The notes: a model not told the origin generated them from the letters alone. A DNA stretch of 64,000 nt from an uncultured Thermoanaerobaculia bacterium (GCA_964420405.1 CAYQTL010000003.1:73154-137153), one strand, 5' to 3'; shown: positions 4,041 through 57,520, counted from the first letter of the stretch. Translations and numbers: made by a program.

Positions 4041-4089
4041 GCGACCGCGGTCGCCCCCCTCCCCCGGTCCGCGTCCGTGCCCGCGTCCG
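4041..4089. repeat. Intergenic repeat module M3 (GCGACCGCGGTCGCCCCCCTCCCCCGGTCCGCGTCCGTGCCCGCGTCCG)
   Basis: Near-identical copy at 57627-57675, reverse-complement copy at 39972-40010, partial copy at 40206-40231. Confidence 0.85.
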
Positions 4090-4191
4090 ACGGGCGGCGG
4101 CGGCGCCGTTTCATCTTCCTCTCCCCGCCCGCTCACACCGGGCCGGCATCGGCGCCGGGAACGCCCCGTCCGCTCCCCGTATAATGTCCAC

Positions 4192-4734
4192 ATGACCCTC
4201 GGGTTCATCTACCTGATCCTGTTCCTCGGCGGCTTCCTGCTCGCCCTGGTGACCGGCCTGGTGCGGCGGCTGCTCCACCCGACCGCCTTGTTCGGGGACG
4301 TGGTGGCGCCGTCCCACGAGCACTGGCGAGCCCACCGCGCCCCTCTCACCGACCTGCTGGTGTCGTTCGTCACGGTGTTCGGGCTCGTCACCCTGGTGGT
4401 GCACGGCCTCGCGACGCTCGGGCCCCTGCGCGAGGTCGCGATCGGCGTCGGCGCCGGGCTGCTCGGGGCGCTCGCCCTCCGGGCGGCGCTCGGACGGGGG
4501 CGCGGGCCGGACCGGGGCGAGAACGACGGTCCCACCCACGCCACGGTCGTCCGGGAGATCCCGGTCCTCGGCTTCGGTCAGATCGAGGTGCCGGTCAGCG
4601 GGCGCACGGTCAGGCTGGCCGCCCGGGGCGAGAGCGCGGCGCCGATCCCCGTCGGCGCGACGGTGAGGATCCTCGACCGCCGGGAGTCGGTGGTGGTGGT
4701 GGCGCCGGTGGACGTCCCGGACGTGCGGAGCTGA
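4192..4734 (+). CDS. NfeD-like membrane protein
   Basis: N-terminal TM helices (FIYLILFLGGFLLALV) and C-terminal OB-like segment (GQIEVPVSGRTVRLAARGE..GATVRILD). ATG 6 nt after TATAAT (4180-4185). Confidence 0.65.
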   Translation: MTLGFIYLILFLGGFLLALVTGLVRRLLHPTALFGDVVAPSHEHWRAHRAPLTDLLVSFVTVFGLVTLVVHGLATLGPLREVAIGVGAGLLGALALRAALGRGRGPDRGENDGPTHATVVREIPVLGFGQIEVPVSGRTVRLAARGESAAPIPVGATVRILDRRESVVVVAPVDVPDVRS

Positions 4735-4741
4735 CGGCGGC

Positions 4742-5344
4742 GTGACTCCCCGCGGCCGCATCGTCCTCGCCAGCCGCTCGCCTCGCCGCCGCGAGCTCCT
4801 GACAGTGCTCGGGCTCGCGCACCACGTGGTGCCCGCCGGCGTGGACGAGTCGCAGGGCGCGGACGAGAGCCCGGCCGACCACGCCGGCCGGGTGGCCCGC
4901 GACAAGGCCACGGCGGTCGCGCGTCTGCACGCGGAAGAGCCGGTCCTCGCGGCCGACACGGTGGTCGACATCGACGGCCGGTCGCTCGGCAAGCCCAGCT
5001 CGGCCGACGACGCGGCCGCCATGCTGCGGCACCTGTCCGGCCGCTGCCACCGGGTCCATACCGGCGTGGCCCTGGTCGCCGGCGGCCGCACCGCCTGCCT
5101 CGTGGACACGGCGGAGGTCTGGTTCCGCCCCCTCACAGAGGATGCCGTCAGATGGTACGTGGCCACCGGTGAGCCGATGGACAAGGCCGGCGCCTACGCG
5201 GTCCAGGGGGCCGGCGGAGTCCTCGTGAAGCGGGTCGACGGCTCGCCGCACACCGTCATCGGCCTGCCGCTGCAGCGCCTTCCCGAGCTGTTCGAGGCGG
5301 TCGGCCTCGATCTCTGGTCCCTGCTGAGGTCGGCGGGCTCGTGA
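4742..5344 (+). CDS. maf: Maf-like nucleoside-triphosphate pyrophosphatase
   Basis: IVLASRSPRRRELL, KAGAYAVQG and TVIGLPL motifs typical of Maf/YhdE. 200 aa. Confidence 0.9.
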   Translation: MTPRGRIVLASRSPRRRELLTVLGLAHHVVPAGVDESQGADESPADHAGRVARDKATAVARLHAEEPVLAADTVVDIDGRSLGKPSSADDAAAMLRHLSGRCHRVHTGVALVAGGRTACLVDTAEVWFRPLTEDAVRWYVATGEPMDKAGAYAVQGAGGVLVKRVDGSPHTVIGLPLQRLPELFEAVGLDLWSLLRSAGS

Positions 5345-5500
5345 GGGGCGCGATGGGTCCGCGCAGTCGCGGCACGGCTGGCTGACGTGGACCGGGTCCC
5401 GTCGCGGTCGGACCCGGGAGCAACGACGGGCGCCGCGGAAGCCGTCGACCGACGCAGCTCCCGACGACGCGGCGGATGCTCTCCTGCCGAGCCCGGCCGC

Positions 5501-5827
5501 TCAACGCCCCTCGGTTCCTCCCCCGGCTCCGGAGCTGCCGCTGCACACGTACGGCTCCCCCAGGTCCACCAGCGAGAACGAGGTGAAGATGTGGTGGCCG
5601 TTGAAGTCGAGCACGCGCACGTCCTCGCGGCCCTCCAGGTCGTCCGCCAGAACCTCGTACGGCACCCCGTACACCTGCCGCACACGCTCGAGCGGCGCCT
5701 CGTAGGCGAGGAACCGGTCGATCCCCATCTGGCCGAGCTTCGTCACCAGTCGCCGGTCGGCGATGTCGGGATACGTGGTCAGGAGCAGGATCGGCCCGTT
5801 TCCCGTGAAGACGATGAACGAGCGCAC
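5501..5827 (-). CDS. Small conserved hypothetical protein (paralog B of tandem pair)
   Basis: 108 aa from GTG 5827, 8 nt after the upstream stop. Clearly homologous to the upstream gene (MRSFIVFTGNGPILLLTT.. vs MRSYMVLTETGPMLVMTS..; VYGVPYEVLADDLE vs VYGRPYDVVAAELE). Confidence 0.7.
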   Translation of the reverse strand: MRSFIVFTGNGPILLLTTYPDIADRRLVTKLGQMGIDRFLAYEAPLERVRQVYGVPYEVLADDLEGREDVRVLDFNGHHIFTSFSLVDLGEPYVCSGSSGAGGGTEGR

Positions 5828-5835
5828 CTCCGACC

Positions 5836-6123
5836 TCAGTGCGTGACCGGCCGGCCGAGCCGCGCGAGCGGAAGCGACGCCAGCACGTGCGGGCCGTCCA
5901 GGTCCAGGATCCGCATCGGGACGCCGCTCTCGAGCTCCGCGGCGACCACGTCGTACGGCCTGCCGTACACCCTGCGCACCTCCTCGACCGGCACCTCGTG
6001 CGCGATGAACGCCTCGACGCCCCGCCGCGACAGCGTCTCCAGCACCCGCCGGTCGTCGATCGAGGGACACGACGTCATCACCAGCATGGGACCGGTCTCG
6101 GTCAGCACCATGTACGACCGCAT
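5836..6123 (-). CDS. Small conserved hypothetical protein (paralog A of tandem pair)
   Basis: 95 aa. ATG 6123 is preceded by GGGAGG. The longer 160-aa ORF extension is Arg/Pro-rich and discarded. Confidence 0.7.
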   Translation of the reverse strand: MRSYMVLTETGPMLVMTSCPSIDDRRVLETLSRRGVEAFIAHEVPVEEVRRVYGRPYDVVAAELESGVPMRILDLDGPHVLASLPLARLGRPVTH

Positions 6124-6342
6124 GGCCCACCTCCCGTCTCGGGCCGGTCGAGCCGCGGGGACCGGTCCGACGTCGCCCCGCGGGATCGCGCGCCCGGGTC
6201 CGTCAGGCCCGGGCGGCGCCGTCGTCCGGCGCGGGGCGTTGCACCGACACGCCCGATGGAGCGGGTCACGGCGTGTCGCGGACCCGAACGAACGCTTCCG
6301 GCCGGCTGTCATCTCCAATGTGTGGCCCGGCAGGGGGGTTCG

Positions 6343-8136
6343 TCAACCGCCTGCGCCGTCGTAGGCGGCCGAGATCCCCTCCACGACGCTGCGGGCGAAG
6401 CGCTCCCTCCAGGCGGCCTCGAGCAGCAGAGCGCGGTCGGCGTCGTTGGCCATGTTGCAGGCCTCCACCAGCACCGCGTGCTGGGCGGCCGTGTAGCGCA
6501 GCACGGCGGGCACGAAGCTCCGCCGGCCCCGCAGAATCCGGTCGCGCACCGGCTGGTAGGGATGGGTCTCGACGTCGTTGGCCTCGAAACGGTCGACCAG
6601 CCGCTCGGCGAGGTGGCGGGAGGACGCCTCGACCCGAGCCTTGAACGACGGACCGAGCCGCACGGTGGGATGGTTGCGGTACTCCTGGTAACGGCCGATC
6701 TGCGGATGGCGGACGGTGAACGTCGGCGGACGCATGTAGCGGGACGGAACGTACACCATCGCCCCACGTACGCTCGGATGCAGCGAGTCGGCGTGGATCG
6801 AGACGAACACCGTCTTCGACCGGGGCACGTCCTCTCCGAGCCGGTTGAGGATGATGTCGTTGGTCAGGTACCAGCGCAGGTGCACGCCGATGACGCTGTC
6901 CCGGAGATCGTAGGTCGGCCGCGTCAGGAGGTACTGGTCGCGACGGTTCTCGAGCCGGTCGCGGTCCGGGATCCGGTCGCCGAGGGTACGGTCGAGGCGG
7001 GTCATCCAGACCGTCGCCCGGGTGTGGCGCTCCAGGATCCGCTTCACGCGGCAGGTGAGGTCGTAGACGTAGGTGGCCTCCCACACCCCCGCCACCACCG
7101 ATCCCGGGTCCGCTCCGCCGTGCCCTGCGTCGAGGACGACGTGGACGCCGCCGAGGTCGGCGGCCCGCACGACCTCCAGGAAGCGGTCGAGCTCGCGCCG
7201 CTCCGCCTCCCACGCCACCCGGCGCGGATCGTCCGCCGGCAGGTGCTCCGGCAGCAGGAGCTCGACGGGGATCTTGACCGGAAAGCCGATCGGAATCGAC
7301 GTCACGTCGTGGATTCCGGACCGCCGGGCGATGGCCGCCGCGGTGGCGTTGACCTGGTCGGCCTCGAGCTGACCGGTGAACCGCACGACCACAGCCGAGT
7401 ACAGGGCCTCGCCGGCCCGCAGCCGGTAGACGGCGAACCGGCCGTCGTCGTCCCGGCCGAAGCTCAGCGGCCCGGCAGACCCCGCCGGCGACTCCTCCGC
7501 GGGTGTCGGCGGCGGCGCGGGTGCCGCGACGGGCGTCGGCGTCGCCGGCGGGCGGACCTCGCGGAACACCGGCATCAGCAGCGCCTCTGGGACGACCACC
7601 GGCCGCCCGCGCTGCGGCGCCCCGTCCGGGTGCCCGGGGTTGGCCCGCCGCAGCTCCTCCGCCGCGCCGGCCCGTCCGGCGAAGAGCCCTGCCAGCCATC
7701 CCCAGCTCTCCTCGCCGTCGCCGAAGGGGTCGAGCGGCCAGTGCCGCCACCCTTCCGGCACCCGCTCGTCCATCGGAAACAGCCGTCGTACCACACCGAG
7801 GCGCACGGTCGGCGCGAGGGCCGTCAGCGGAACCCGCACCTCGCGGTCCCGCATCGGATCCACGAGACGCGGGTTGGCGGCACGCAGGCCGGGCGCACCG
7901 TCGGCCCCCCCCGTCCAGGTCCGGGCCAGCGAGATCCAGCCCTCTCCCCCGGCGGGCCGGACGAGCAGCATCGGAGGCTCGCCGCGGCGCCATCGCAGCA
8001 GGCCGTATCCCTCGACCTCCGTCTCCAGCAGGGAAGGCCCCTCGACGGTCGCCGCCGCAGGGAGCACGACCGCGAGGACGAGCAGGGCCCAGATGACGAC
8101 GCCGTCACCGCGGCGCGGCGTGCGCCCGCTCGTCAC
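6343..8136 (-). CDS. N-acetylmuramoyl-L-alanine amidase (Amidase_3) with long N-terminal region
   Basis: VVLDAGHGGADPG, VFVSIHADS and LVEACNMAN motifs of AmiA/B/C-type amidases. Start placed at GTG 8136, giving a signal-like TSGRTPRRGDGVVIWALLVLAVVLPAAA. Start uncertain. Confidence 0.8.
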   Translation of the reverse strand: MTSGRTPRRGDGVVIWALLVLAVVLPAAATVEGPSLLETEVEGYGLLRWRRGEPPMLLVRPAGGEGWISLARTWTGGADGAPGLRAANPRLVDPMRDREVRVPLTALAPTVRLGVVRRLFPMDERVPEGWRHWPLDPFGDGEESWGWLAGLFAGRAGAAEELRRANPGHPDGAPQRGRPVVVPEALLMPVFREVRPPATPTPVAAPAPPPTPAEESPAGSAGPLSFGRDDDGRFAVYRLRAGEALYSAVVVRFTGQLEADQVNATAAAIARRSGIHDVTSIPIGFPVKIPVELLLPEHLPADDPRRVAWEAERRELDRFLEVVRAADLGGVHVVLDAGHGGADPGSVVAGVWEATYVYDLTCRVKRILERHTRATVWMTRLDRTLGDRIPDRDRLENRRDQYLLTRPTYDLRDSVIGVHLRWYLTNDIILNRLGEDVPRSKTVFVSIHADSLHPSVRGAMVYVPSRYMRPPTFTVRHPQIGRYQEYRNHPTVRLGPSFKARVEASSRHLAERLVDRFEANDVETHPYQPVRDRILRGRRSFVPAVLRYTAAQHAVLVEACNMANDADRALLLEAAWRERFARSVVEGISAAYDGAGG

Positions 8137-51136: not shown

Positions 51137-52228
51137 GTGAGCGACACGGCGACCGCAGAGCGGCATCCCACCCGCCACTGGACCCGGCTGGAGGACGGCC
51201 GCGTGCTGTGCGAGGTGTGCCCGCGGCTGTGCCGGCTCCGCGACGGCCAGCGCGGCCTGTGCTTCGTCCGCATGGCGGCGGACGGCGAGATCGTGCTCGC
51301 CACCTACGGCCGCTCGTCGGGGTTCTGCATCGACCCGATCGAGAAGAAGCCCCTCAACCACTTTCTGCCGGGCACCCCGGTGCTGTCGTTCGGCACCGCC
51401 GGCTGCAACCTCGCGTGCCGGTTCTGCCAGAACTGGGACATCTCCAAGTCCCGCGAGATCGACACGCTGGCCGACGAGGCGTCGCCCGGCGCGATCGCGG
51501 CGGCAGCCGAGCGGACCGGCTGCCGGTCGGTGGCGTTCACGTACAACGACCCGGTGGTCTTCATGGAGTACGCGATCGACACCGCCGCCGCGTGCCACGC
51601 CCGGGGGATCGCGACCGTCGCCGTCACCGCCGGCGAGATCCTGCCCGAGCCGCGCCGCGAGCTGTTCGCCGCCATCGACGCCGCCAACGTCGACCTGAAG
51701 TCGTTCCGCGAGGAGTTCTACCGGAAGCTCACCGGCGGCGGCCGCCTGGAGCCGGTGCTCGACACGCTGCGGTACCTGCGGCACGAGACCGACGTCTGGT
51801 TCGAGCTGACGACCCTGCTGATCCCGGGTCACAACGACTCCGACGAGGAGCTCGACGAGATGACCCGGTGGGTGGTCGCCGAGCTGGGTCCCGACGTGCC
51901 GATGCACTTCACCGCGTTCCATCCGGACTACAAGATGCTCGACGTGGCGCCGACGCCCCCCGAGACCCTCCGTCGGGCGCGCCGGATCGCCATCGCCAAC
52001 GGGGTCCGCTACGCCTACACCGGAAACGTCCACGACGCCGACGGCGGCTCGACCCGCTGCCACCGCTGCGGCACGGTGCTCATCGGCCGCGACTGGTACC
52101 GGCTGAGCGACTGGCGGCTCGACGATGAGGGCGCCTGCCGTGAGTGCGGCGAGCCGCTTCCCGGCCGGTTCGAGCCACAGCCTGGCAGCTGGGGACCCCG
52201 CCGCCAGCCGGTACGGATCGGCCGGTAG
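51137..52228 (+). CDS. amrS: AmmeMemoRadiSam-system radical SAM enzyme (AmrS-like)
   Basis: CEVCPRLCRLRDGQRGLCFVR N-terminal Cys motif, IDPIEKKPLNHF, GCNLACRFCQNWDIS radical SAM cluster, C-terminal CHRCG..CRECG. GGAGGGGG SD. Confidence 0.85.
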   Translation: MSDTATAERHPTRHWTRLEDGRVLCEVCPRLCRLRDGQRGLCFVRMAADGEIVLATYGRSSGFCIDPIEKKPLNHFLPGTPVLSFGTAGCNLACRFCQNWDISKSREIDTLADEASPGAIAAAAERTGCRSVAFTYNDPVVFMEYAIDTAAACHARGIATVAVTAGEILPEPRRELFAAIDAANVDLKSFREEFYRKLTGGGRLEPVLDTLRYLRHETDVWFELTTLLIPGHNDSDEELDEMTRWVVAELGPDVPMHFTAFHPDYKMLDVAPTPPETLRRARRIAIANGVRYAYTGNVHDADGGSTRCHRCGTVLIGRDWYRLSDWRLDDEGACRECGEPLPGRFEPQPGSWGPRRQPVRIGR

Positions 52229-52268
52229 AACCGCCCCCCCCCGCACCCCCCCTCCCGATCCCGCTCCC

Positions 52269-52324
52269 GTCATCCTGAGCGACCGGAGCGCCCGTCAGGG
52301 CGCGGAGGGAGTCGAAGGACCTCC
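52269..52324. repeat. Intergenic repeat module M1, copy 2
   Basis: Matches 3876-3931 except for the central loop (cccgtcagggcgcgg vs cccttggggacgcgg). Confidence 0.9.
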
Positions 52325-52376
52325 ACACTCGCTGCGCCGCCGTTCACGGAGGTCGGAACAGCCACGGAGCCAGGAT

Positions 52377-52417
52377 CAGCGGCAGCGACAGGGTCAGCGA
52401 CAGGGTCAGCCGCAGCG
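52377..52417. repeat. Repeat module M4 (CAGCGACAGGGTCAGC units)
   Basis: cagcggcagcgacagggtcagcgacagggtcagccgcagcg. Runs into the 221-bp repeat. Confidence 0.8.
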
Positions 52418-52621
52418 TGCAGCCCCCGGGCGACCTCGGTCTCCCCTCTCTCGCGTCCTCTCCCCCGTCCGCACCGATGCGGCGGCAGGAGCAGCGGCAG
52501 CGACGACACCGGATCCCGAATCCCGCCGCCCGCCACCTGCCGCCCGGATCCCAAGCTCCGGGCGGCGGGTGGCCGGAATCGGGAGCCGGGCTTCGGGTTC
52601 CGGCGGTCGCGGCCCGGCTGC
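52401..52621. repeat. 221-bp perfect direct repeat, left copy
   Basis: Identical base for base to 56797-57017 (offset 4396, checked by eye). Contains a 16-bp-stem hairpin at 52533-52572. Confidence 0.95.
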
Positions 52622-52634
52622 TTGCGGGTTGCGG

Positions 52635-52813
52635 GTGCCCGGTCCGACGATTTGGCGATCTTGAAGTCTGCCTCCGCGCCGTGGTGACCCGCTCATCAAG
52701 CCGTCGAACTGCGTCGTGGCCTCGAAACGGTGGAGAGGAACCGGGACGAGCCCACGCTCGAGAGCCGACCCAGGAACCGTCCCAGGGAATCGCCAGATCG
52801 TCGGGCCCGGCAC
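52635..52813. mobile_element. MITE-like element, left copy (about 179 bp with about 26-bp terminal inverted repeats)
   Basis: Ends GTGCCCGGTCCGACGATTTGGCGATC and GAATCGCCAGATCGTCGGGCCCGGCAC are inverted repeats (about 22/26 match). Second copy at 56237-56422. No ORF inside. Confidence 0.55.
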
Positions 52814-52858
52814 CGCAAGCCACAAGCGTGGACACCATTACGAGGAAGCCCCCGAAGT

Positions 52859-52946
52859 GTCCGCGTTCGCTCGAATCACTGTCCGCGTTCCCTCGAGTTC
52901 GTGTCCACGTTCGCTCGGAACCCTGTCCGCGTTGCGTCGGCCTCCG
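52859..52946. repeat. Four direct repeats with exact 22-bp period (core GTCC[G/A]CGTT[C/G])
   Basis: Cores start at 52859, 52881, 52903 and 52925. The units share GTCCGCGTTCGCTCG-like heads and variable tails. Confidence 0.85.
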
Positions 52947-53124
52947 CAGTGAAGGACCTTGTGCCGACATGGCCGTGTTGTGAGGTTGTTATCAGTGGCA
53001 CCTTTGACTGGCACGGTTTCACCAACCGGCTATTGAAACCGGCGGACGGGTGCCTGGCATCCGCCGATCGCCATGGGGCGCGGGATGGCCGGTTCTGCTT
53101 CAGCGGTGCCCCACCTTCTGAGAA

Positions 53125-55563
53125 TCAACCCGCGGTGGCGTCGCTTTCCGAACCCTCCTCGAGTTCGAGGCGAAGCAGACCGCCTGGCGGGAGAAGGCCC
53201 TCTGCGCAGCGGGCATCTGGAGGAGTGGCGCCTAGGAGGGCTGCGACGGCTTCATCGGCGCTTGAGAACAGACACGCCCGGTAGTGTCCCGGGGCGAGCT
53301 GGGGGATCCTCGCCCGATCGCTCGTGGGGTTCAGCGTGGCGCCAACGTAACGCGCCCATCCAAGAAGCTCAATCATTGGCAGCGGGAGACCGTCGGCCCA
53401 CGCCAACCAGCCTCCTTGGGGTAGTCCAGTCCCCGCGTCCGTAGCTGGCGCCGCCCGTCGCACGTCTATCTCGAGGGTCCCCCCTGCGGCCGTGACCGGG
53501 AGGATGACGTCGGTCCCCTCGCCAAACTGCACCAAACGTACCGTGAGTGCATAGGGTGGAGGCGCCACAATAGCAAGGGCGCGGGTAGCGTGGCGCGGCA
53601 TTACGAGCCTGAACCTGCCGTTGGCATCGGTGACCGCAGACTCGGTGGCGGCCTGCGTCAGGTTGTCCCAATCGGTGGTCATCGTGACCCGTGCGCCGAC
53701 TACCGGCCGGCCCTCCCCGATCACAGTTCCGGTGACCTCACGCCGGTCAAGGAGCTTCAGCTCCACAGGGGCGGCCGCACCTCGTGTAGGGATTTCGACG
53801 TGGGTGTACTCCGACTGCCGGATTCCGTCGTCGAGGCCGCTGTGCGCGACGAGCCACACTGGACCGGGCGTAATGCCAACGAATTGAAAGCTCCCGTCGC
53901 CTTCGGACTGTCGGGACGTAAGCGGGACAAAATCGATGCCAAGCATGGTGACCATCGCCCCCTCAACCATCCGACCACCTTCATCGACTACCACGCCCCG
54001 AGCCCCACTGTCGGGAACGCGAAGCTCGACCTCGCTGCACTCACCTTCTCTTTCTTCAACCTCCACGTCGCGCAGGAGGGCGTCGAGGCCCGTTTCCGGG
54101 TCCCGCACTTGGACGGTCCATGACCCCGATCTGGGGAGCAGGCCAGCGAATCGCCCGTCCTCGTCAGCCTGAAGGTGCGCGCCAGGGCTGGCGCCGGCCC
54201 CGCCGAAGTGGACGAAGGCCTGCACAGGCAGGTCCCCGGAGAGCACCGTGCCGCACACCTCGACCGAAACGACCTCCAGCCGCACGAACGGCGAATCTGG
54301 CTGCACGTCGATCCCCACGGTCAGCATGACACCCTGGTCTGCCAGAAGGGTCACCTCGACCAGGCCAGGCGCCAGATTCGGAACCATCACCGTGCCGTCC
54401 AGCGGGACACTGAGGTCGAAGAGTACCGGTCGCTCGAGGGCGCCTCTGGGGGGATGGCCCTGGAGCCTCCAGGGCACACCCCCTGGCGCGGTGGGCGGGG
54501 CGATTTGCACCTCGAGTTCTACCGGTCTCTCCAGGACCACGAACTGGGTGATCTGGGTCTCGTCGCCCTCGTACACCGGCAGCGGCCCTATCCGGGTTGG
54601 CAGGAAGCCTGGCTGCTCCGCGGTCACGACGTAGCTGCCCGCACCGACGCCTTCAACGACGAAGTTGCCGCGATCGTCGGGACTCGTTGTTCGGCGCTGG
54701 GCCGCCCGTCGGGTCATCTCTTCCGCCGAGGGCGGCGCCGTTGCGGGTGATGGCGCGGGTTCAAGGGTGACAGCACACAACGAGGGCTCCGCCGGTCCCT
54801 CCGCCGTGCGTACCCGGCCGAGCACCGAGCCCCCCGGGACGAAGGTCACGGTTCCTATGTCTCGTGTCACACCGGACGTCAGCTCTTGCTGCAGCACAAG
54901 AACGGATGCGAAGCCCTGGGACCGCAGCCGGAGATCGAGAGTGGTGGCAGGGACACTACAGCGAAAGGCCAGGTCTTCCACCAGGCATCGGGTTTCCCCA
55001 CGCGGTTCCGTCTCCTCTACCACCTGTTCGAAGGTCTGGCCGTTTTCATCGCCAATCGCCTGACGTTTGACCACGGTCGCGCCACGAAATTCCACAAGGA
55101 TCTCCTGGGGAACGGGGGCTCGCGCCGGCGTCTCGATCCGCCCGGAGACCCCAGTCAGCGGCCAAGCGACCACCTCGGTCCGGCCGCTCTCGTCGCTTGC
55201 CATCACCGTCGTTGGCGCGGCCCACCACGATGGGTTGGTCAACGTCACTGTCCACAGGCTCCCGGTGGGAACCTCGACGGTGACCGAGCCGGGGATCGTC
55301 ACCTCGAGCGTCAGGTCCGCTTCTATTGCATCGCCGTGACCGCCCGCCCAGGACAGCACCAGGCTGGCCTGGGCGGGCTCAGTGTCCTCGGGCAGGCTCA
55401 GGCTCGTTGCCGCCGTCACGACGACCTCGACGCGACTGGCCTCGAATCCGTCGGCCCCAGCCGACATCCCCACCATCGCGAGCATCGCTGCAACCGCGGT
55501 GCTCCGCAGCCGACTCCGTCTCGTCCTCACCTTCCTGCGAACGGCAGCCATGAGCCCGCCCAT
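53125..55563 (-). CDS. Secreted 812-aa protein with multiple CarboxypepD_reg-like (Ig-like beta-sandwich) domains
   Basis: Signal-like RSTAVAAMLAMVGMSAGADG. At least four segments fit the regulatory-domain pattern (e.g. VTGTVIGEGRPVVGARVTMT..TDANGRFRLV; ARGVVVDEGGRMVEGAMVTM..GDGSFQFVGI). GC lower than neighbours. A start at 55551 is also possible. Confidence 0.8.
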   Translation of the reverse strand: MGGLMAAVRRKVRTRRSRLRSTAVAAMLAMVGMSAGADGFEASRVEVVVTAATSLSLPEDTEPAQASLVLSWAGGHGDAIEADLTLEVTIPGSVTVEVPTGSLWTVTLTNPSWWAAPTTVMASDESGRTEVVAWPLTGVSGRIETPARAPVPQEILVEFRGATVVKRQAIGDENGQTFEQVVEETEPRGETRCLVEDLAFRCSVPATTLDLRLRSQGFASVLVLQQELTSGVTRDIGTVTFVPGGSVLGRVRTAEGPAEPSLCAVTLEPAPSPATAPPSAEEMTRRAAQRRTTSPDDRGNFVVEGVGAGSYVVTAEQPGFLPTRIGPLPVYEGDETQITQFVVLERPVELEVQIAPPTAPGGVPWRLQGHPPRGALERPVLFDLSVPLDGTVMVPNLAPGLVEVTLLADQGVMLTVGIDVQPDSPFVRLEVVSVEVCGTVLSGDLPVQAFVHFGGAGASPGAHLQADEDGRFAGLLPRSGSWTVQVRDPETGLDALLRDVEVEEREGECSEVELRVPDSGARGVVVDEGGRMVEGAMVTMLGIDFVPLTSRQSEGDGSFQFVGITPGPVWLVAHSGLDDGIRQSEYTHVEIPTRGAAAPVELKLLDRREVTGTVIGEGRPVVGARVTMTTDWDNLTQAATESAVTDANGRFRLVMPRHATRALAIVAPPPYALTVRLVQFGEGTDVILPVTAAGGTLEIDVRRAAPATDAGTGLPQGGWLAWADGLPLPMIELLGWARYVGATLNPTSDRARIPQLAPGHYRACLFSSADEAVAALLGATPPDARCAEGLLPPGGLLRLELEEGSESDATAG

Positions 55564-55677
55564 GTCAGTCTTTCGCGGTCGGTAACGGAAGTACCCGGGT
55601 CGAAGCTGAGTCGGCTGGCTGCGGTTGAGGGAAGGCGGCGGCGCATCCAGCCTTATTGGTTGATCCCTCGATGATGA

Positions 55678-55962
55678 TCACCTCGCAGAACGACCCCCCA
55701 GAGTGCACATGGTGCCCATGGGGAAGATCTGGTCCTCGTCGCAATTGCATTTGCCCACGACTCCAGGCAAGGTCGTAATGCAGCGAGAACCGAACAGTGG
55801 TATGTACATACACTTATAGCAATCGTACGGCGGGCTCCAACAGGTATACGACCCTCCTTCGGCGTCAACCTGTCCTGTTCCCAGACACGCGGCTCCAAAA
55901 GCAAGCGTCAGGATCGTCACCTTCAGCGAAGTACGTAACCCAACAAAGGTCGTCGTTTTCAT
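55678..55962 (-). CDS. Cys-rich secreted mini-protein (94 aa), no recognised family
   Basis: AAAGGAGG 5 nt before ATG 55962. Signal MKTTTFVGLRTSLKVTILTLAFGAACLG. Remainder has Cys pattern C-x6-C-x2-C-x9-C-x10-C-x-C-x11-C. Directly upstream of, and co-oriented with, the 812-aa gene. Confidence 0.75.
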   Translation of the reverse strand: MKTTTFVGLRTSLKVTILTLAFGAACLGTGQVDAEGGSYTCWSPPYDCYKCMYIPLFGSRCITTLPGVVGKCNCDEDQIFPMGTMCTLGGRSAR

Positions 55963-55980
55963 CCGTGCCTCCTTTTCTGA

Positions 55981-56009
55981 ATTTTGGCGTTTCCCATTTT
56001 CGTGGTCAA
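55981..56009 (-). promoter_or_regulatory. Sigma70-like promoter for the Cys-rich gene (TTGACC-17 nt-CAAAAT)
   Basis: On the minus strand, TTGACC (56009-56004), a 17-nt spacer, then CAAAAT (55986-55981), about 18 nt before the ATG. A direct repeat CTAGAG-CG-CTAGAG (plus-strand reading) lies just upstream, at about 56029-56042. Confidence 0.4.
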
Positions 56010-56236
56010 CTGTTTTCTTGGCAACAGCTAGAGCGCTAGAGATAGTAAGTTCTTTTTCAGTCATCCTGCGGAGATTATTCCCAAGTCGGGATACACCTGC
56101 GTGAGCCGCGTGCTCGGGCCGTGTTGAGCGCCCGGACGGAGGCGTTCGACCGCGGCCGAGGCGCCTGGGGACTGGGGGCTCCCGCGATCGTGGGCGGACG
56201 AACACGGGAGCATTCAGCATTCCCTAAATGTTGCGG

Positions 56237-56422
56237 ATGCCTGGTCCGACGATTTGGCGATCTTGAAGTCTGCCTCCGCGCCGTGGTGACCCGCTCATCA
56301 AGCCGTCGAACTGCGTCGTGGCCTCGAAACGGTGGAGAGGAACCGGGACGAGCCCACGCTCGAGAGCCAACCCAGGAACCGTCCCCCGTCCCAGGGAATC
56401 GCCAAATCGTCGGGCCCGGCAC
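56237..56422. mobile_element. MITE-like element, right copy
   Basis: Collinear with 52635-52813 (same orientation). A few substitutions plus a 6-7 bp insertion (ccccgt) near the right end. Same inverted termini. Confidence 0.55.
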
Positions 56423-56453
56423 CGAAACCGAAACCCGAAACCCGGCACCGAAA

Positions 56454-56759
56454 ATGGCCATGTCAGGCAGAACGTCGGTCGGGCACTCCTCGCCCGGCGC
56501 CGGCTGCGGGTCAACGACCTCGGGGCCGGCCGGGATCCTCGCCGGCGCGGCGAGCGTGATCAGCAACGACACCGGCCCCGCCCACCTCGGCGCGGCGCTC
56601 GGCCGCCCGAGACTGACCCTCTTCGGCGACAAGGACCCGAACTGGCCCGCGGCGCGAGGGTCCCGGGCCGTGGCCCTCGGCGCTCTCGGAGCGCGGCCCT
56701 GCCTCGACGATGCCTGGGATGCCTGGCGCGGGCTCGCGACCCTTCCGATCCGTTCCTGA
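56454..56759 (+). pseudogene. 3-prime remnant of a GT9 (heptosyltransferase-like) glycosyltransferase
   Basis: ASVISNDTGPAHLGAALGRPRLTLFGDKDPNWP matches the conserved C-terminal GT9 block (..NDSGPMHLAAALG.P.V.LFG..). Only about 100 codons remain, and the upstream sequence is the MITE copy. Confidence 0.5.
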
Positions 56760-56813
56760 CAGCGGCAGCGGCAGGGACAGCGACAGGAGGCAGCGTCAGG
56801 GTCAGCCGCAGCG
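56760..56813. repeat. Repeat module M4
   Basis: cagcggcagcggcagggacagcgacaggaggcagcgtcagggtcagccgcagcg. Runs into the right 221-bp repeat. Confidence 0.8.
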
Positions 56814-57017
56814 TGCAGCCCCCGGGCGACCTCGGTCTCCCCTCTCTCGCGTCCTCTCCCCCGTCCGCACCGATGCGGCGGCAGGAGCAGCGGCAGCGAC
56901 GACACCGGATCCCGAATCCCGCCGCCCGCCACCTGCCGCCCGGATCCCAAGCTCCGGGCGGCGGGTGGCCGGAATCGGGAGCCGGGCTTCGGGTTCCGGC
57001 GGTCGCGGCCCGGCTGC
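56797..57017. repeat. 221-bp perfect direct repeat, right copy
   Basis: Identical to 52401-52621. Hairpin at 56929-56968. Confidence 0.95.
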
Positions 57018-57109
57018 GGCGCGCTGCGCCGGATGTGGACGCCTCATGCCGGCTCGACGACGGGACAGGGATCGGGAGACGCAGCCGCGGTCCGCGACCG
57101 CCCGGCCCC

Positions 57110-57520
57110 TCACTCCCCGACCCGGCCCTCCCCGGCCAGCTCCGCCTCGGCCTCGATCTCGACCCGCCAGGCGGGGTCGAGCAGCCCCCGGACGACGACC
57201 ATCGTCGCCGCCGGCCGGACCTCCCGGAACACCTCGCCGTGGGCGCGCCCGACCGCCTCCCAGTCGGCGGCGTCCACGAGGAACATGCGCGTGCGCACGA
57301 CGTCGGCGGCCGACCCGCCGAGCGCCTCGACGGCCTCCACGATGATCTCGAAGCAGCGCCGCGCCTGGGCGAAGGCGTCGCCGTCGACGGTGCGGCCGTC
57401 GCGACCGATCGGCGCGGTCCCCGCCACCACGATCCGCGAGCCGCGCCGCACCGCCCGCGAGAACCCGATCTCGGCCTCGTACGGCGACGCGGACCCCACG
57501 CGCCGGATGTCGTCGCTCAT
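57110..57520 (-). CDS. RidA/YjgF family protein
   Basis: SPYEAEIGFSRAVRRGSRIVVAGT.. and C-terminal WRVEIEAEA are typical of the family. GGAGGTG SD before ATG 57520. Confidence 0.8.
   Translation of the reverse strand: MSDDIRRVGSASPYEAEIGFSRAVRRGSRIVVAGTAPIGRDGRTVDGDAFAQARRCFEIIVEAVEALGGSAADVVRTRMFLVDAADWEAVGRAHGEVFREVRPAATMVVVRGLLDPAWRVEIEAEAELAGEGRVGE

Follow-up and report, generated by a model that had tools for sequence, protein, structure and literature searches.

A candidate two-gene operon for a rare secreted cysteine-rich mini-protein and its exported partner, with a poly-G frameshift in the copy studied

Simple-sequence contingency loci are known from the poly-G/C phase-variable genes of Neisseria, Haemophilus, Campylobacter and Helicobacter. 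The mini-gene described here, found in a window of 64,000 nucleotides (the whole stretch of DNA that was analysed) from an uncultured Thermoanaerobaculia bacterium, resembles them in having a homopolymeric G tract within its coding sequence, the gene being one for a secreted or surface-associated product, and in that related strains differ in tract length (here 6, 7 and 8) and hence in whether the reading frame is kept. Unlike those loci, however, the tract is short, is interrupted in two lineages and is known from consensus contigs, and the host is an environmental Acidobacteriota-like organism and not a host-adapted pathogen. A second point of reference is provided by translationally coupled two-gene operons, which are characterised by a stop/start junction and by termination-reinitiation. 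The junction between the mini-gene and the large gene behind it (TGAcATG) is likewise of the stop/start type, with a Shine-Dalgarno (SD) sequence inside the last codons of the upstream gene (GGAGGA in L002 and L006; for these handles see Table 1), but the coupling is here deduced from sequence and the helix predicted at the junction carries no informative covariation.

The two products also have described counterparts. With cysteine-rich, Sec-secreted mini-proteins of the knottin, defensin or Kazal type, the mini-protein shares a Sec-type signal, a short mature domain (~98 aa), fixed cysteine spacing and fast evolution between the cysteines; it differs from them in its odd number of cysteines (nine), in its conserved Pro-rich tail, in being obligately paired with a large partner gene and in having no Pfam, NCBIfam or PDB match even at E <= 1-10. 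The partner shares matches to PF13620, DUF6795 and DUF4198 with the CarboxypepD_reg (PF13620), or transthyretin-like, exported proteins of Acidobacteriota and Bacteroidota, but it has neither a TonB-dependent receptor barrel nor a catalytic domain, its family is very rare, and it contains seven invariant cysteines.

The reading that we regard as probable is that of a two-gene operon on a foreign cassette, encoding a secreted nine-cysteine protein and an exported partner, with the window copy out of frame. A sigma-70-like promoter and a strong ribosome-binding site would drive both genes, and a precursor of ~130 aa would be cut by signal peptidase I at Q-V-D-A to yield an acidic, extracytoplasmic nine-cysteine protein of ~98 aa. 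The second product would be an exported protein of ~80 kDa with transthyretin-like (CarboxypepD_reg) beta-sandwich domains and the seven invariant cysteines, and both proteins would act as a complex outside the cytoplasm. In the window, the G6 tract would end translation at 55678, so that the precursor has 94 aa (60 aa when mature) and ribosomes stop 115 nt short of the partner start.

The mini-gene and the length of its product

The original prediction had placed a strongly signalled gene in the most AT-rich stretch of the window, and the lowest-GC 500-nt bin is indeed 55501-56000 (0.570 against ~0.74). The promoter-like cassette that it described on the minus strand (TTGACC, a 17-nt spacer and CAAAAT) was recovered, as was the ribosome-binding site AAAGGAGG 5 nt from the ATG (Table 1). 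Between 52300 and 57100 there are three sigma-70-like promoter matches, all at 55981-56046, where 0.2 would be expected from shuffles. All lineages keep the start codon, the SD and the -35 TTGAC(A/C) hexamer of the mini-gene, the hexamer being present in L001, L006 and L004/L008 and the SD reading AAGGAGG in L006, GGGAGG in L004 and AAGAGG in L002. Translation of the ORF returns the 94 residues of the prediction exactly, with the cysteine spacing given there (C-x6-C-x2-C-x9-C-x10-C-x-C-x11-C). The start also stands: a longer ORF from an ATG at 56220 was considered and rejected because the third codon position has the lowest GC of the three in 55963-56220 but the highest in the mini-ORF, because L001, the 97% relative, lacks that ATG through a deletion, and because homology to the third lineage, L006, ends at 55975.

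Table 1. Features of the locus (window coordinates) and the contigs that carry the mini-gene, with their poly-G alleles
Feature	Position	Strand	Remark
Repeat block A	52377..52621	.	98-100% identical to A', start-to-start spacing 4396 nt
Repeat block B, MITE-like panhandle	52628..52818	.	downstream cassette flank
Partner gene, 812-aa exported protein	53125..55563	-	CarboxypepD_reg / DUF6795 / DUF4198 matches, RR-containing N-terminus
Conserved C-terminal extension	55565..55693	-	open in +1 frame (SFCEVIIIEGSTNKAGCAAAFPQPQPADSASTRVLPLPTAKD, then stop)
Mini-gene ORF, truncated allele, 94 aa	55678..55962	-	identical to NCBI protein P0001
Poly-G tract, G6	55694..55699	-	frameshift site
Signal peptide, 34 codons	55861..55962	-	heuristic analysis and alignment
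Shine-Dalgarno AAAGGAGG	55968..55975	-	read from sequence; 5 nt ahead of ATG 55962
-10-like hexamer CAAAAT	55981..55986	-	promoter scan; 17 nt past -35
-35-like hexamer TTGACC	56004..56009	-	promoter scan
Repeat block B'	56230..56427	.	94% identical to B; upstream flank; also in L001
Repeat block A'	56772..57017	.	
Window contig			reference; NCBI genome, 160,953-nt contig; G6, out of frame
L001			97% nt identity to window; JGI 3300017698; G7, in frame
L006			73% aa identity; Logan SRR22808029; G5-A-G, in frame, run interrupted, Gly to Glu
L002 = L003			~52-56% aa identity; 'uncultured Thermoanaerobaculia bacterium' MAG GCA_964512045.1; G6-A, in frame, synonymous G-to-A interrupts run
L004, L008			mutually 99.76% identical, 7 SNPs apart; Logan SRR12689834 and JGI 3300037504; G8, out of frame

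The Sec-type character of the N-terminus is borne out by heuristic criteria. The n-region contains two to four K/R residues and no acidic residue ahead of the core, the core reaches a 12-residue Kyte-Doolittle mean of 2.1-2.95, and every lineage has kept a cleavage motif, Q-[VL]-[DG]-A, ahead of the mature N-terminus. The weak lipobox (FGAAC) that had been pointed out has a Gly at -3, and its Cys, which had also been counted as a possible eighth, signal-proximal cysteine, is Ser in L002 and L004; since this residue is not conserved, the mini-protein is not a lipoprotein. Judged from its sequence, the mini-gene is real, looks expressed and encodes a small, cysteine-rich protein with Sec-type secretion.

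What had to be revised is the length of 94 aa. The stop at 55678 is due to a G-run that is 1 nt shorter than in the intact copies (L001, L002/L003 and L006), which encode 129-132 aa with nine cysteines. After ...CTLGG the intact copies continue as (S/P)FCE-x-IIIEGS-x-N-x-AGCAAAFPQPQ-x-AD..., an extension that is read in frame in L001, L002 and L006, in which FCE, IIIEGS, N and AGCAAAFPQPQ are invariant and which the alignment marks as the best-conserved segment of the whole mini-protein. The full-length mature protein (96-98 aa, acidic, net charge -3 to -5) has a Pro-rich tail and nine cysteines that are invariant in all lineages, spaced C-x6-C-x2-C-x9-C-x10-C-x-C-x11-C-x6-C-x13-C. Conservation of the cysteines had been set beforehand as a test of the gene, and the seven mature ones of the prediction are invariant across homologues; the window product retains these seven in a 60-aa mature chain and is devoid of Cys 8, Cys 9 and the tail. 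An AlphaFold run on the mini-protein with a 4-sequence alignment gave an unusable model (pLDDT 36).

That the 94-aa protein with seven or eight cysteines is itself the functional secreted product (a toxin, bacteriocin, signal or inhibitor), possibly a lipoprotein, is very improbable, and the homologue alignment largely refutes it: its ORF, SD and signal peptide are real and its seven cysteines conserved, but intact homologues from three lineages reach ~130 aa with two more invariant cysteines and the most conserved motif, the lipobox is degenerate as described above, and immunity, transporter and modification genes are absent from the cassette. The deposited 94-aa product would thus be best annotated as a truncated allele, and the ~130-aa form (L001, L002, L006) is the one to take for expression or structure work.

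Across all collections searched, homologues were found in six contigs only, which represent three lineages. A word-indexed search with the 94-aa product returned the self match alone; the 90% cluster of this protein includes a 132-aa member on the JGI contig; an exhaustive HMMER search yielded the true homologues P0004 and P0005 (129 and 142 aa, ~52% identity); and a profile search added the third lineage at 73% identity, P0005, P0004 and P0009 together spanning 52-73% identity to the mini-protein. Further HMMER matches (P0003 and P0006-P0008) were repetitive and of low complexity and were discarded on inspection. Scans of metagenomes and viruses with peptide patterns and with a fully degenerate back-translation of IIIEGSxNxAGCAAAFPQPQ gave no matches. 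The claim that the protein belongs to no recognisable family has therefore survived: there is no Pfam family at E <= 1, no meaningful NCBIfam family, no match of the family profile to PDB sequences at E <= 10 and none in PADLOC or PHROGs. Rfam found nothing over 52000-57500, and the literature yielded no description of the mini-gene/large-gene pair or of the samples behind the contigs. By these searches the mini-protein family is very rare and undescribed, and with three lineages only its conservation statistics are necessarily thin.

The partner, the junction and the cassette

The original prediction had noted that the mini-gene lies directly upstream of a gene for a large secreted beta-sandwich protein, and this pairing holds in every lineage, a mini-gene being followed by an ~800-aa CarboxypepD_reg gene in six of the six contigs. 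The match of the partner to PF13620 scores 77.5 bits against a cutoff of 32.3 (E 1e-21) and covers at least three stretches, next to the matches to DUF6795 and DUF4198. Its family counts 7 homologues among 5.8 billion clustered proteins, and in the genome collection the contig of L002 is the sole match to the large protein; the seven cysteines stay invariant among homologues as distant as 46% identity. At the N-terminus the sequence is TRRSRL in the window, ARRSWL in L002/L004 and CRRGIL in L007, in each case followed by an Ala-rich h-region; this R-R-x-[RWI]-L pattern resembles a Tat signal, with no Pfam or NCBIfam TAT-signal model reported at E <= 1. A single-sequence AlphaFold model of the large protein was again unusable (pLDDT 37).

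More distant relatives of the partner delimit the pairing. In L007, whose large protein is a 46% homologue, the upstream ORF has 35 codons only and weakly resembles the mini-protein tail, including its last cysteine (tblastn E = 0.047 in a small search); it may be a mini-gene remnant. In L009, a 30% homologue, an unrelated 273-aa gene lies upstream. These two loci indicate that the large protein does not universally need the mini-protein and that the mini-protein is limited to the closest partner clade. The L007 ORF (5890-6003; MLSSDGGGARAGCASEFLLSLPAVSAS...) overlaps the start of the large gene (TGATG). A second pair is found in L002, comprising a 78-aa secreted protein with 14 cysteines (4080-4361) and a 764-aa CarboxypepD_reg protein (4479-6773), with a G9 run ~40 nt upstream of the start of the small gene. 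No sequence homology between this pair and the one studied here was detectable; the two are at most analogous.

In all lineages the partner ATG begins 1 nt past the stop of the full-length mini-gene, whereas the truncated window ORF stops 115 nt upstream of the partner AUG. The SD in the last mini-gene codons of L002 and L006 is replaced by a weaker GAAAGA in the window. A junction that is fixed in this manner implies coupled translation in fixed proportion, from which we infer that the two proteins would form a complex outside the cytoplasm; on the sequence evidence, a co-translated secreted pair forming a complex is the most likely arrangement. Because each protein has an odd number of invariant cysteines (nine and seven), an intermolecular disulfide may join them. 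This argument is numerology as long as there is no structure, and in an anaerobe the cysteines could alternatively bind metal. If the complex is real, this would be a new family of bacterial mini-proteins, rich in disulfides and provided with a dedicated large partner, from a phylum that has been little studied.

RNAalifold and single-sequence folding both pair the partner AUG region with GAGCCUGAGCCUGCCC, ~170 nt downstream. The resulting AUG-sequestering helix is predicted in all lineages (fold z-score -1.69), but it is uninformative since its pairs are nearly invariant. Structure-gated coupling of the two genes is accordingly a weak inference from the modelled fold; if it does hold, the early stop in the window would also lower synthesis of the partner.

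The cassette had been called foreign-looking, and its composition and surroundings agree with this: the mini-gene has a GC3 of 0.62 and the large gene one of 0.75, compared with 0.86-0.98 for the host genes nearby, and repeats lie on both sides. In L002 the large gene, with a GC3 of 0.85, matches its host. A and A' are direct repeats of 245 nt, with 227 nt 100% identical, that bound a 4396-nt unit, and B and B' are direct copies of ~190 nt with terminal inverted repeats of ~36 nt and a DNA fold z of -4.5. The A/B layout is the same in L001; the other lineages are without these repeats, and there the pair adjoins a MipA gene. No recombinase was found inside the cassette, and the 4396-nt unit resembles a small element, integrated or mobilised, that lacks a recombinase of its own.

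Within the cassette only the mini-gene and the large gene are present, and no immunity, transporter or modification genes were found there. The prediction had preferred a disulfide-stabilised protein to a RiPP precursor, and that preference is sustained. The radical SAM gene nearby (51137-52228) is of the AmmeMemoRadiSam type (TIGR04337, 635 bits) and is absent from the L002, L004 and L008 loci; as it is not conserved with the pair, the RiPP reading is rejected. A RiPP precursor or bacteriocin was also rejected for the lack of a conserved modifying enzyme, of a leader peptidase or transporter and of an immunity gene, the PADLOC and PHROGs searches being empty. The neighbourhoods are not conserved as a set (MipA, peptidase S8, CHAT, M3 peptidase, cytochrome c and a DUF6036 insertion were encountered), and no functional theme emerged from them.

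The poly-G tract and its readings

The five tract alleles were read from consensus contigs (Table 1). With G6 in the window and G7 in the 97%-identical L001, the window ORF ends early because its run is one G shorter, and the window allele would have lost its function or have it reduced. The ancestral tract was probably G7, and the simplest history would be a G7 tract from which one G was lost in the window and to which one was added in L004/L008, with two interruptions elsewhere. Length differences toggle the frame among close relatives (G6/G7 at 97% identity, G6A/G8 at 97%), and the G8 allele, common to L004 and L008 despite their 7 SNPs, must be a real inherited one. As judged from these alleles, the G-run is a recurrent frameshift hotspot in the mini-gene family, and it may serve as an on/off switch.

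The substitution pattern is further evidence that the mini-gene codes for protein. In comparisons of lineages, the dN/dS ratio is 0.41-0.53 over the whole mini-gene, 0.23-0.50 over the extension when this is read in its extended frame, and 0.30 over the large gene, values of ~0.5 indicating, as far as such ratios go, no more than moderate constraint. The window and L001 are separated by 2 synonymous and 7 non-synonymous substitutions in the mini-gene and by 23 synonymous and 26 non-synonymous ones in the large gene (omega ~0.42); the two ratios are not significantly different (p = 0.27).

An obvious alternative is that G6 in the window is a sequencing or assembly error, in which case the organism has an intact gene of ~132 aa and the tract is biologically inert. 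No assembly error is commoner than a one-base difference in a homopolymer. In the window the +1 frame stays open through the whole extension, whose sequence is nearly the same as in L001. A frameshifting indel is also present in the large gene of L001, which shows that these assemblies do contain errors or lesions. However, the out-of-frame G8 allele in two assemblies 7 SNPs apart demonstrates that real frameshift alleles exist, and the deposited annotation has the 94-aa product. We consider this explanation possible though on balance unlikely. An error in the intact relatives instead of in the window is unlikely as well, because the extension is conserved at the protein level.

If the frameshift in the window is real, it could belong to a phase-variable contingency locus in which reversible poly-G slippage toggles the mini-protein and, through the lost coupling, lowers the partner, with both states being kept. 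This would agree with the occurrence of in-frame and out-of-frame alleles side by side in two lineages (G7/G6 and G6A/G8), with the inheritance of G8 across two assemblies, with out-of-frame copies whose downstream frame is still open and whose partner is intact under purifying selection, with the G9 run of the second L002 pair, and with the location of two of the three frameshifting indels in ~2.8 kb of coding sequence within this one tract of 6-8 nt. On the other hand, G6-G8 counts as short among known phase-variable tracts, the sample is limited to the five consensus-contig alleles, any homopolymer is a mutational and sequencing hotspot, and the 64-kb window contains 33 G/C runs of at least 6, hence a run such as this one is not special here. 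Moreover, two lineages are locked on by G-to-A interruption, which argues against selection for tract mutability. Phase variation is for these reasons rather unlikely. Were the switch nevertheless real, simple-sequence phase variation would extend past host-adapted pathogens to environmental Acidobacteriota. The fullest version of such a proposal, in which a nine-cysteine protein is disulfide-docked to a seven-cysteine, possibly Tat-exported scaffold, poly-G slippage acts as the switch that uncouples the partner, and the whole resides on a 4.4-kb MITE-bracketed mobile cassette of free-living, environmental Thermoanaerobaculia-like Acidobacteriota, is improbable when taken as a whole.

The frameshift could also be an early pseudogenising lesion, devoid of regulatory meaning, in a horizontally acquired cassette that is being lost. 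The foreign composition of the cassette would fit, as would the 7 non-synonymous against 2 synonymous changes in the mini-gene of the window lineage, the possible mini-gene remnant that is all L007 has of it, and the reciprocal state of the two closest contigs, with the mini-gene intact and the large gene broken in L001 and the reverse in the window. Yet dN/dS of the large gene is still 0.42 between window and L001, each copy carries a single lesion, and promoter, SD and junction are intact, so that we hold decay to be quite unlikely. The preferred reading, an operon for a secreted pair of which the window carries an out-of-frame copy, is the one that we retain.

Several smaller observations accompany the tract and the cassette. 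The lesion in the large gene of L001 is an extra A at ~2303 (window ~54842), which splits the gene into 263 and 530 aa. From 54973 to 55573, a stretch of ~600 nt that takes in the start of the large gene and the last part of the mini-gene, the window and L001 differ by 0 substitutions, while the remaining cassette is ~3% different; this identity suggests a recent recombination tract between strains. Right after the stop of the AmmeMemoRadiSam gene, a C9 and a C7 run lie 3 nt apart (52234-52252), where the repeat-rich region has its left edge. Just past the 3' end of the large gene, at 52857-52939, there are three to four tandem 22-nt units (core GTCCRCGTTCSCTCG), which could form an iteron-like or protein-binding array. 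Finally, L002 has a 1.1-kb insertion relative to L004 (8670-9769), located between the MipA gene and the mini-gene and flanked by direct repeats of ~100 nt; it contains a 150-aa gene of the DUF6036 nucleotidyltransferase-like type and a 56-aa gene, which together have a toxin-antitoxin-like look.
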